Shown: piece by piece, positions 265-1,343 of the stretch
How the letters are laid out: each line of letters begins with the position of its first letter
Position numbering within the stretch: position 1 is the first letter of the stretch
Assembly (NCBI RefSeq): GCF_003334765.1
Contig: NZ_QOWT01000077.1
From: Escherichia coli
Lineage (GTDB): Bacteria; Pseudomonadota; Gammaproteobacteria; Enterobacterales; Enterobacteriaceae
Length of the DNA stretch: 1,647 bases
Strand: one strand, 5' to 3'
The notes under the pieces: model-generated
Told to the model about the DNA's origin: nothing
Seen by the model: only the letters and a program-made list of their open reading frames with translations
Database searches by the model: none
Program-made: the position numbers and the translations under genes

Positions 265-328
265 TGATCCCGCTCGCCGCAAGTCGATGACCGAGCGTAG
301 CGAGCGAATCGACGAGGAAGCGGAAGAG
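265..328 (-). other. ColE1/pMB1-like block downstream of bom (candidate single-strand initiation / primosome-assembly-like site)
   Basis: The minus strand reads CTCTTCCGCTTCCTCG ... CTCGCTACGCTCGGTC ... GCGGCGAGCGGGATCA. From memory this resembles pBR322/pUC sequence between bom and ori (CTCTTCCGCTTCCTCGCTCACTGACTCGCTGCGCTCGGTCGTTCGGCTGCGGCGAGCGGTATCA), with a 16-bp identical run and roughly 80-85% identity over about 60 bp. It contains a CGCTCG/CGAGCG stem. The functional label is inference. Confidence 0.5.
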
Positions 329-364
329 AACCGGAAGCCACATTGAGCACTTACGCACTGATGC

Positions 365-432: not shown

Positions 433-539
433 ACATCCTGTCCCGATTTCTGAGGCGTTTTAACGGTGAACGGACGGCAAAAACACGATGGAGCTGTTGA
501 ACGTGAAAACCACGAAATCTGGCAAAAATCACGGCTGGC

Positions 540-581
540 GAGGCTTGCATAGGAGTAAGCGAGGCTTGCATAGGAGTAAGC
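540..581. repeat. Perfect tandem direct repeat, 2 x 21 bp (GAGGCTTGCATAGGAGTAAGC)
   Basis: 540-560 and 561-581 are identical. On the minus strand the repeat begins exactly at the predicted nick (GCTTACTCCTATGCAAGCCTC twice). Confidence 0.95.
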
Positions 582-640
582 CAGTATACACTCCGCTATC
601 GCTACGTGACTGGGTCAGGGCTTCGCCCCGACACCCCCAA
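577..640 (-). other. ColE1/pMB1-type oriT (bom) with predicted nick between 580 and 581 on the minus strand
   Basis: The minus strand reads GGGGGTGTCGGGGCGAAGCCCTGACCCAGTCACGTAGCGATAGCGGAGTGTATACTGGCTTA. From memory this matches the pBR322 bom region (GGGTGTCGGGGCGCAGCCATGACCCAGTCACGTAGCGATAGCGGAGTGTATACTGGCTTA) with only about 3 substitutions. The nick is placed by analogy to the CTGG/CTTA context. The pBR322 sequence is recalled, not aligned. Confidence 0.75.
613..637. repeat. Right arm of 25-bp inverted repeat (part of the bom/oriT)
   Basis: GGTCAGGGCTTCGCCCCGACACCCC pairs with 365-389. Confidence 0.9.
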
Positions 641-731: not shown

Positions 732-781
732 CCTGTCGCATCCAGGATGAAACAACGTTGTCGCATCCTGGATGCGACAAC
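731..781. promoter_or_regulatory. Operator/iteron-like repeats: 25-bp perfect palindrome (757-781) plus degenerate upstream copy (734-755), each centred on a CCWGG site
   Basis: 757-781 GTTGTCGCATCCTGGATGCGACAAC has perfect 12-bp arms around a central T. 734-755 TGTCGCATCCAGGATGAAACAA repeats the left arm and core 25 bp upstream. Half-site TGTCGCATCC occurs at 734-743 and 759-768, and inverted at 771-780. It sits immediately upstream of the candidate rep promoter. Confidence 0.5.
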
Positions 782-794
782 ACGCAACAAGGTG

Positions 795-824
795 TTGCAC
801 AGATGTGTCATGATGGCTTAGATT
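795..824 (+). promoter_or_regulatory. Candidate sigma70 promoter for rep (-35 TTGCAC 795-800, 18-bp spacer, -10 TAGATT 819-824)
   Basis: Hexamers read directly from the sequence. The position between the palindromic operator-like repeats and the rep RBS fits an autoregulated rep promoter. Not experimentally anchored; alternative weak hexamers exist in the AT-rich tract. Confidence 0.35.
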
Positions 825-852
825 TGAACCAACGTTAGTGCATGGGATTTTC

Positions 853-866: not shown

Positions 867-1343
867 ATGTTTATTGATTCAGAAAAACGACTGAAACAAC
901 TTTCAGATGAGGCAAAGAAAAACACCGAGGATCTCGAAGAAGCAAAGAAAAATTCAAGGTTTACACAGGTATCCCCAAAAGGTTGGGAACGTGTTCGAGA
1001 GCTGCTGAAGGATAGCCAAGGCATATCAGCACTGAAGCTGTACTCATTTTTAGCGGAGCATATCGATCCTACGTGTGGCGCTGTCGTTGCGGATCAGCAA
1101 TTCCTAGCTGAAAAACTTGGAGTTAGCAGAAGCACAATTATTCGGTGGCTCAATTACTTAGAATCAAAAAATGCATTAGTTAGAATCCCCGTTGCTGGTA
1201 AGGTTTGTGCGTATGCCCTCGATCCACATGAAGTCTGGAAGGGATACAACACTACGAAAAACCATGCAGCGTTTGTCACTAAAACACTGGTCAACAAAGA
1301 CGGTGATATTCAGCGCCGAATCATGGCCATGTTTTCAAATTGA
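867..1343 (+). CDS. Putative plasmid replication initiation protein (small winged-helix/HTH Rep), 158 aa
   Basis: ATG at 867 with a Shine-Dalgarno AGAGGG at 853-858 (8-nt spacer) and TGA stop at 1341-1343. It is the only long ORF without Arg/Pro/Trp-rich low-complexity composition. The C-terminal half has an HTH-like segment (QQFLAEKLGVSRSTIIRWLNYLESKNALVRIP) typical of winged-helix DNA-binding domains of plasmid initiators. It lies just downstream of an AT-rich tract and palindromic repeats. No HUH or catalytic-Tyr motifs, so not a rolling-circle Rep. The Rep assignment rests on context and motif, not on a homology search. Confidence 0.8.
   Translation: MFIDSEKRLKQLSDEAKKNTEDLEEAKKNSRFTQVSPKGWERVRELLKDSQGISALKLYSFLAEHIDPTCGAVVADQQFLAEKLGVSRSTIIRWLNYLESKNALVRIPVAGKVCAYALDPHEVWKGYNTTKNHAAFVTKTLVNKDGDIQRRIMAMFSN

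Follow-up and report, generated by a model that had tools for sequence, protein, structure and literature searches.

A candidate dual-specificity orphan origin of transfer in a pKL1-family plasmid of Escherichia coli

The DNA analysed here (the window, 1,647 nt, from one contig of Escherichia coli) represented a circle of 1570 bp in which 77 nt had been read twice, at the two ends, and its sole credible gene was repA (867-1343, plus strand), which encodes a 158-aa helix-turn-helix replication initiator. A cryptic plasmid of about 1.5 kb, as proposed in a preliminary description of the stretch, was found. Upstream of repA, positions 364-637 (about 275 bp) made up a compound origin of transfer (oriT) consisting of two convergent orphan oriTs, one of IncI-complex type on the plus strand and one of ColE1 type on the minus strand. 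The nicks predicted for them (plus strand, 440/441; minus strand, 581/580) face each other across a spacer of 140 nt. The IncI-complex-type oriT, which was overlooked in the preliminary description, is probably the more important half of the module.

The two origins of transfer

Positions 364-449 of the plus strand carried an oriT of the IncI complex (R64/IncK2/Z-type, MOBP12), with a distal inverted repeat, a repeat-A-like hairpin and the nick sequence ACATCCTG^TCCCG. Of the 86 positions of this segment, 78 (91%) agreed with the oriT in pTA142-2, an IncK2/Z plasmid; identity to the corresponding oriTs in R64 (IncI1) and in an IncI-gamma/K1 plasmid was 81-83%, R64 itself giving 81%. In all three plasmids the match immediately adjoins nikA (or a nikA-like mobA) and a NikB-type relaxase gene, and 1,905 conjugative plasmids matched the segment. 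A preprint on oriT families counts "oriT_pKL1", from the prototype of the plasmid family described below, among the oriT_R64 family.

The distal 8-bp inverted repeat, GTCGGGG(T)GAAGCCCTGAC at 370-388, aligned with the element of R64 and IncK. It was followed by a second inverted repeat (I5) with arms at 395-413 and 414-432, the right arm ending 8 nt before the nick, and the single-stranded DNA fold of the hairpin region (395-432) had a z of -2.3. Repeat A of R64-type oriTs, an inverted repeat of 17-bp type, is the binding site of NikA, and its right arm ends 8 nt from the nick; both the 8-nt rule and the binding of NikA are reported by Furuya and Komano (1997). The right arm together with the nick region (GCGCGGTTATACGATTACACATCCTGTCCCG) was identical to that of the IncK2/Z plasmid. 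The nick region itself (ACATCCTGTCCCG, 433-445, plus strand), which contains CATCCTG^TCCCG, was identical in R64, the IncI-gamma/K1 plasmid and the IncK2/Z plasmid. By homology to this region of R64, whose nick position is reported by Furuya and Komano (1991), the plus-strand nick is predicted between G440 and T441. The segment was thus like R64 in its distal repeat, in the hairpin 8 nt from the nick and in the nick sequence. Unlike R64 and the IncK2/Z plasmids, the window had no nikA or nikB in cis, while these genes adjoin the match in R64 and in plasmids L004 and L005, so the plus-strand oriT is an orphan copy.

For the minus strand, positions 577-636 formed the core of a ColE1-type (MOBP5/HEN) oriT, which comprised a distal inverted repeat of 8 bp together with a spacer and the nick sequence GTGTATACTGG^CTTA. 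Alignment to ColE1 (NC_001371.1, 1462-1521) gave 59 identical positions out of 60 without gaps (E=4e-26), the match comprising the 56 nt upstream of the nick and CTTA, and the ColE1/pBR322-type oriT of the preliminary description was confirmed in this way. The extent given for it, 540-640, held in part: 577-636 was homologous, while 538-579 was a 21-bp tandem duplication that is absent from pKL1. The sequence GTGTATACTGGCTTA occurred once in the window (minus strand, 577-591) and in none of 200 shuffled sequences, even with two mismatches allowed. The exact GTGTATACTGG^CTTA was invariant across six ColE1-type oriTs, and the 60 nt of 577-636 matched 4,779 PLSDB records, of which 4,393 were typed as mobilizable.

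The conserved block was delimited by aligning the window with ColE1 and four mob-encoding plasmids of Salmonella, Klebsiella, Erwinia and Enterobacter, five genera in all. The block common to mob-encoding ColE1-type plasmids ran for about 57 nt, from GCGGGT(G/T)TCGGGGCG exactly to CTGG^CTTA, and by this five-plasmid alignment the window held the entire conserved core of the ColE1-type oriT family. The distal inverted repeat (GTCGGGGC..GCCCTGAC) lay at the conserved distance upstream of the nick and formed a hairpin in the single-stranded DNA fold.

The nick of this half is predicted on the minus strand between G581 and C580, the homologue of ColE1 nic, which agrees with the canonical nick context noticed earlier at this place. 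ColE1 nic reportedly reads 5'-(1469)CTGG/CTTA(1462)-3' (Varsaki et al. 2003), and CTGGCTTA of ColE1 fell at 1469 to 1462 in the alignment with the window, in agreement with these coordinates. A text search for CTGGCTTA returned primers only, and the nick position is placed by homology.

In ColE1-type plasmids the matching site is flanked by MobC/MbeB/MbeD genes. Unlike ColE1, the window had no adjacent mbe genes and no ColE1 replicon, and a second oriT of another type lay alongside. The cognate mbeA and mbeC were absent in cis among open reading frames (ORFs) of at least 52 aa, and none of 10 window ORFs (52-158 aa) matched a relaxase or relaxosome accessory protein of NCBIfam at E<=1, in line with the lack of relaxase and mob genes stated before. 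Since relaxase and accessory genes do not adjoin it, the ColE1-type site is an orphan, bom-like copy instead of a complete mobilisation module. Like the bom of pBR322, it would need Mbe proteins in trans, and pBR322-type bom sites work in trans. With a recognisable oriT and no relaxase gene, the window belongs to the pOriT class of plasmids, which has been defined by these features (PMC10123127, PMC12282955).

The two halves shared a 29-nt element (I1, GGGGTGTCGGGGYGAAGCCCTGACC) containing the 8-bp inverted repeat GTCGGGG/CCCTGAC. One copy was at 365-393 on the plus strand and the second at 609-637 on the minus strand, 93% complementary to the first, and the same element was found in the oriTs of ColE1, R64 and IncK. 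The spacer between the nicks (441-580, 140 nt; 119 nt in pKL1) was collinear in all 14 relatives aligned. It would be the leading DNA into the recipient from either nick, and the recognition elements, being outermost, would be transferred last, which is the usual geometry of an oriT. The start of the shared element (GGGGTGTCGGGG, 365-376 and 626-637) resembled the nick context of CloDF13, GGGTG/GTCGGG (PMC5935869); the exact CloDF13 motif GGGTGGTCGGG was absent from the window and from nine relatives scanned. A hairpin with 13-nt arms (I9, 640-668) directly abutted the ColE1-type half.

The plasmid backbone and the spread of the module

Hundreds of plasmids of 1549-1570 bp in PLSDB were 98.5-98.8% identical to the window over the full length of the latter. 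They came from E. coli, Klebsiella and Shigella hosts and had a Col(MG828) replicon. Among them were pKL1 itself, which is the prototype (NC_002145.1; 1549 bp; from strain KL4 of E. coli), and pCE10D; the Col(MG828) kin of pKL1 include pCE10D, pJJ1886_1 and plasmids of 1549 bp in O104:H4 strains of E. coli. The plasmid is not new: judged by its sequence, it is a member of the pKL1 family, namely pKL1 plus a 21-bp duplication. Its repA gene was 100% identical to that of pKL1 (protein WP_000469298.1; Pfam HTH_36, E=3.5e-8), and the plasmid has both the RepA and the backbone that mark the Col(MG828) family. When rotated to a common start, the window and pCE10D differed by 2 substitutions and one 21-bp insertion over 1549 bp. 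RepA, the origin region and both oriT halves were like those of pKL1 and pCE10D with 1-2 point differences, and the tandem duplication at 538-579 set the window apart from both. Despite having no relaxase, pKL1 and its relatives are listed as mobilizable in PLSDB (MOB-suite typing).

Around these features, a near-perfect palindrome with 23-nt arms (I3, 734-779) lay upstream of repA in the origin/operator region of pKL1, and a terminator scan flagged it on the minus strand. The oriV of pKL1, with Rep-binding sites and a 16-bp inverted repeat, has been placed upstream of rep (PMC3832669). GC content was 39-47% across the origin and repA (700-1300) and 58-60% in the non-coding remainder (1400-300), where a GC-rich region of about 570 nt extended from 1344 through the junction to about 340. 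The terminal redundancy (D1), in which 1-77 and 1571-1647 are 100% identical direct repeats spaced 1570 apart, is an assembly overlap, in keeping with circular relatives of 1549-1570 bp; an exact end overlap of 77 nt is what a circular contig assembled with k=77 typically shows. An Rfam scan of the window found no RNA family, only two sub-threshold chance matches, and a sigma-70 promoter scan found none within the oriT module.

The whole module was present in all 14 relatives first examined, at 81-98% identity. The flanks diverged to 81-88% identity around the nick cores, which were kept: neither core had changed in any of the 13 relatives whose modules were aligned, the ColE1-type nick motif was intact in each of 16 relatives checked, plasmids with unrelated rep genes included, and the 60-nt ColE1-type core was nearly invariant in 17 family plasmids. 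We offer this conservation as evidence that the double-oriT module is under selection.

Five of the relatives (L012, L015, L016, L018 and L020) had rep genes without detectable nucleotide similarity to repA of pKL1. The same module with dissimilar rep genes implies that either the module or the rep gene was exchanged between backbones. The module was also seen in L022, on a backbone whose rep was unlike pKL1 repA at the nucleotide level. The extra ORFs (144-219 aa) of the relatives with other rep genes had no significant NCBIfam match, and the 219-aa ORF of L012, the sole one scanned against Pfam, had no match there; a hidden relaxase in these relatives was rejected on these two scans.

The R64-type hairpin occurred in two main forms. 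An IncK2/Z-like form was found in the window, pKL1 and L001, and an IncI1-like form, whose right arm and nick region were one base off R64, in pJJ1886_1, L012, L013, L014, L015 and L017; the hairpin of L016 was a hybrid of both. Since the forms differ in both arms, the hairpin has been kept. This variation suggests that small plasmids may swap oriT specificity to match different types of conjugative helper.

The sequence of the oriT junction was found in 423 of 5,426 complete E. coli genomes (about 8%), and 473 of the 476 places were on plasmids. The other three matches were chromosomal, for example in NZ_CP093011.1 at about 5,190,948, and could reflect integration or misassembly.

A tandem duplication at the predicted ColE1-type nick

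The duplication at 538-579 consisted of two perfect 21-bp copies, 538-558 and 559-579. Its minus-strand unit, CTTACTCCTATGCAAGCCTCG, starts at nick+1, so that the minus strand reads ...GTATACTGG^CTTACTCCTATGCAAGCCTCG CTTACTCCTATGCAAGCCTCG CCAGCC... from the nick, and a duplication starting just after the predicted ColE1-type nick is new here. Only one copy of the unit was present in pKL1 and pCE10D. The register of the repeat was ambiguous by 2 nt in some plasmids and by 1 nt in L012, L014, L022 and L023 (T/A after the array).

Among the 17 family plasmids surveyed, the unit had five alleles, four of which were seen duplicated, always with identical copies. Allele A was single in L002, L003, L009 and L016 and double in the window. 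Allele B was single in L018 and L019, double in L001, L013 and L014 and triple in L022, the one triple form. Allele B' was found in single copy only (L020, L021), allele C in two copies only (L012, L023), and allele D was single in L017 and double in L015. Two pairs of plasmids were nearly identical except for the duplication, the window and pCE10D (2 mismatches) and L013 and pJJ1886_1 (3 mismatches). The backbones of the two pairs are about 78 mismatches apart and have different unit alleles; a duplication with these endpoints therefore had at least two independent and recent origins. It was rare, being found in 10 of the 423 junction-bearing E. coli genomes and in 7 of 474 PLSDB records; the exact T/T-allele duplication of the window was absent from PLSDB and from the 5,426 complete E. 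coli genomes.

An assembly artefact was rejected as the cause of the repeat, as it lies far from the contig ends and is shorter than the 77-nt overlap, and also because independent assemblies from several laboratories and a three-copy form exist. A 4837-bp metagenome contig (L105) had four copies of the nick region with unit alleles A and D, and represents a chimeric assembly unless it is a multimer or cointegrate of natural origin. The metagenome scan with the 15-mer CAGCCGTGATTTTTG was too unspecific, and L105 was the only family member among the matches listed.

Ordinary replication slippage or unequal exchange, with the adjacency to the nick due to coincidence or to local secondary structure, has in our estimate a little better than an even chance of being the origin of the repeat. 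The flanking microhomology was 1-2 nt (run lengths 43-44 nt), and inverted pentamers, CTGGC...GCCAG, flank the unit and may aid slippage. Once two copies exist, slippage explains the three-copy form of L022 and could keep the copies identical. Another tandem duplication, 33 bp of GAGGAAGCGGAAGAGAACCGGAAGCCACATTGA (window 314-346), was also observed in one record, L003 (1582 bp). The recurrence of the same endpoints in four unit alleles, each with identical copies, argues in the other direction, as do the two plasmid pairs on distant backbones. Moreover, one of the 2-3 possible registers puts the start of the unit at nick+1, for which a random position in 1549 bp would give about 0.2%, and no other duplication site recurs in the family: besides the 33 bp of L003, there was a 21-bp duplication elsewhere in L015, and each was seen once.

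Alternatively, the repeats may be scars of relaxase action at the ColE1-type nick, which we put forward tentatively as a less probable origin. After nicking at ACTGG^C, the 3' end would be extended by 21 nt, or a regenerated nick would be read through, as far as CCTCG^C, the first downstream CTNG, which has CT.G^C in common with the true nick. The relaxase-bound 5' end would then be rejoined at CCTCG^C, giving nick-CTTA..CTCG-CTTA..CTCG. A rejoining of this kind would produce the structure that was seen, and in the register in which it was seen. The reciprocal product with no copy, ACTGG^CCAGCC, which recombination between nick and pseudo-nick should yield, was not found in PLSDB; such a product would lose the CTTA half of the nick.

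Routes of mobilisation and meaning for the plasmid family

Homology to two oriT families, convergent geometry, conservation in the family and the absence of a relaxase gene together make it likely that the module is an orphan oriT of dual specificity, and the plasmid, which encodes no transfer protein, would borrow all of them. With the second oriT, of IncI-complex type, 140 nt away on the other strand, one conjugative plasmid could supply both relaxase and mating apparatus. In this one-helper route, the NikA/NikB-type relaxosome of an IncI/K/B/O/Z conjugative plasmid would nick the plus-strand oriT, and the strand would be exported by the mating apparatus of the same plasmid; for the allele of the window the helper would most likely be IncK2/Z, possibly others. 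In a two-helper route, MbeA/MbeC-type proteins of a ColE1-like mob plasmid would act at the minus-strand oriT, and the channel would come from a conjugative plasmid able to mobilise ColE1 (IncF, IncI and others). Both IncF and IncI1 plasmids are efficient helpers in the mobilisation of ColE1-like plasmids.

For the one-helper route, published transfer data exist for a relative. The donor in work on pESBL-283, an IncI1 plasmid, contained no plasmids other than this one and a 1554-bp plasmid 99.7% identical to pJJ1886_1, and the small plasmid, though unselected, was present in 5 of 10 sequenced transconjugants (PMC4382111). An R64-type oriT predicts such co-transfer with IncI1 alone, which required no helper of ColE1 type. 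The co-transferred relative carries the IncI1-like hairpin allele, and the window the IncK2/Z-like one. In addition, for just over 60% of the pOriT plasmids of E. coli, a single helper is believed to provide both relaxase and mating apparatus (PMC10123127, PMC12282955).

These data bear on the claim of the preliminary description that the plasmid would be mobilisable only with ColE1-type Mbe/Mob proteins and a conjugative system, which is incomplete or wrong. That a single ColE1-type bom is the route of spread, and one open only when a mob helper of the ColE1 family and a conjugative plasmid are both present, is very improbable: it would fit the intact ColE1-type core (59/60 to ColE1) and the lack of an encoded relaxase, but not the complete IncI-complex-type oriT at 364-449, the co-transfer of a family member with an IncI1 plasmid alone, or the cataloguing of the pKL1 oriT with R64 and not with ColE1. 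A ColE1-type helper is not the sole route, and is probably not the main one.

Several points count against a module of dual specificity. The left arm of the window hairpin was imperfect (79% complementary), and the folded strand scored -18.8 kcal/mol versus -29.5 kcal/mol for the IncK2/Z plasmid. Beyond nick+4, the sequence next to the ColE1-type nick was unrelated to ColE1, and activity of this half is putative throughout the family. Some relaxases act poorly in trans, MOBQ4 being at least 500-fold worse. The co-transfer of the pJJ1886_1-like plasmid was incidental, left uninterpreted by the authors and not mapped to an oriT (PMC4382111). Finally, MOB-suite labels L012, L015, L016 and L021 "non-mobilizable" despite both nick cores and hairpin regions, although oriT-based mobility typing seems to miss diverged copies.

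Some of these points would also suit a module whose IncI-complex-type oriT alone is functional, with a ColE1-type half that is either an inactive leftover of recombination through GGGGTGTCGGGG..CCCTGACC or no more than an inverted-repeat partner. The existing experimental support concerns the one-helper route only, databases group the pKL1 oriT with R64, and on the 3' side of its nick the ColE1-type half departs from ColE1 in sequence. Recombination of this kind would be possible at the shared 29-nt element, and the module is visibly mosaic, as in the hybrid L016. We nevertheless consider this unlikely. Across 17 plasmids whose flanks have diverged and whose rep genes differ, the ColE1-type core was almost invariant. 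Its extent is that of the block that mob-encoding plasmids have in common, the duplications recur exactly at its predicted nick, and bom sites of the pBR322 type function in trans.

The module with two specificities has known parallels. The plasmid pEC156, a ColE1-type replicon without mob genes, has functional orphan oriTs of F type and R64 type (PMC4743918). It is likewise a carrier of dual-specificity orphan oriTs, and is mobilised by relaxases that act in trans, its R64-type oriT being about 84% identical to R64, but its second oriT is F-type where that of the window is ColE1-type, and it is larger and has a restriction-modification system. The 1982-bp rolling-circle plasmid pBuzz bears two oriTs, oriented inversely, and a B/O plasmid mobilises it (Moran and Hall 2019). 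Both pBuzz and pSSSE-01_b_RI (L148, NZ_CP097851.1, a 2257-bp Col(MP18) plasmid of Salmonella) are, like the window, small plasmids without relaxase that have two inverse oriTs, but their replicons differ from that of the window. In pSSSE-01_b_RI the convergent oriTs are at 773-844 (plus) and 1189-1260 (minus), and both are IncI-complex variants with different hairpins and with the same distal element as the window. The window instead pairs a ColE1-type with an IncI-complex-type oriT, so its halves call on different relaxase families.

The principle of hitch-hiking (pOriT plasmids, oriT mimicry, pBuzz, pEC156) and the typing of this family as mobilizable are already known, and the finding is largely confirmatory. 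If the module works as proposed, it explains how a very small and common E. coli plasmid without transfer genes may spread, namely by copying the oriTs of two helper systems. The pairing of IncI-complex and ColE1 types would open both a one-helper and a two-helper route, with hairpin alleles that may track helper types, and relatives in which both nick cores are plainly present escape typing tools. The duplication that recurs at the predicted nick could serve as a sequence-only marker of the use of orphan oriTs. If the repeats are indeed scars, natural variation would record that the orphan ColE1-type oriT is cut and rejoined in the wild by relaxases of other plasmids, and an error mode of conjugative termination would be exposed.

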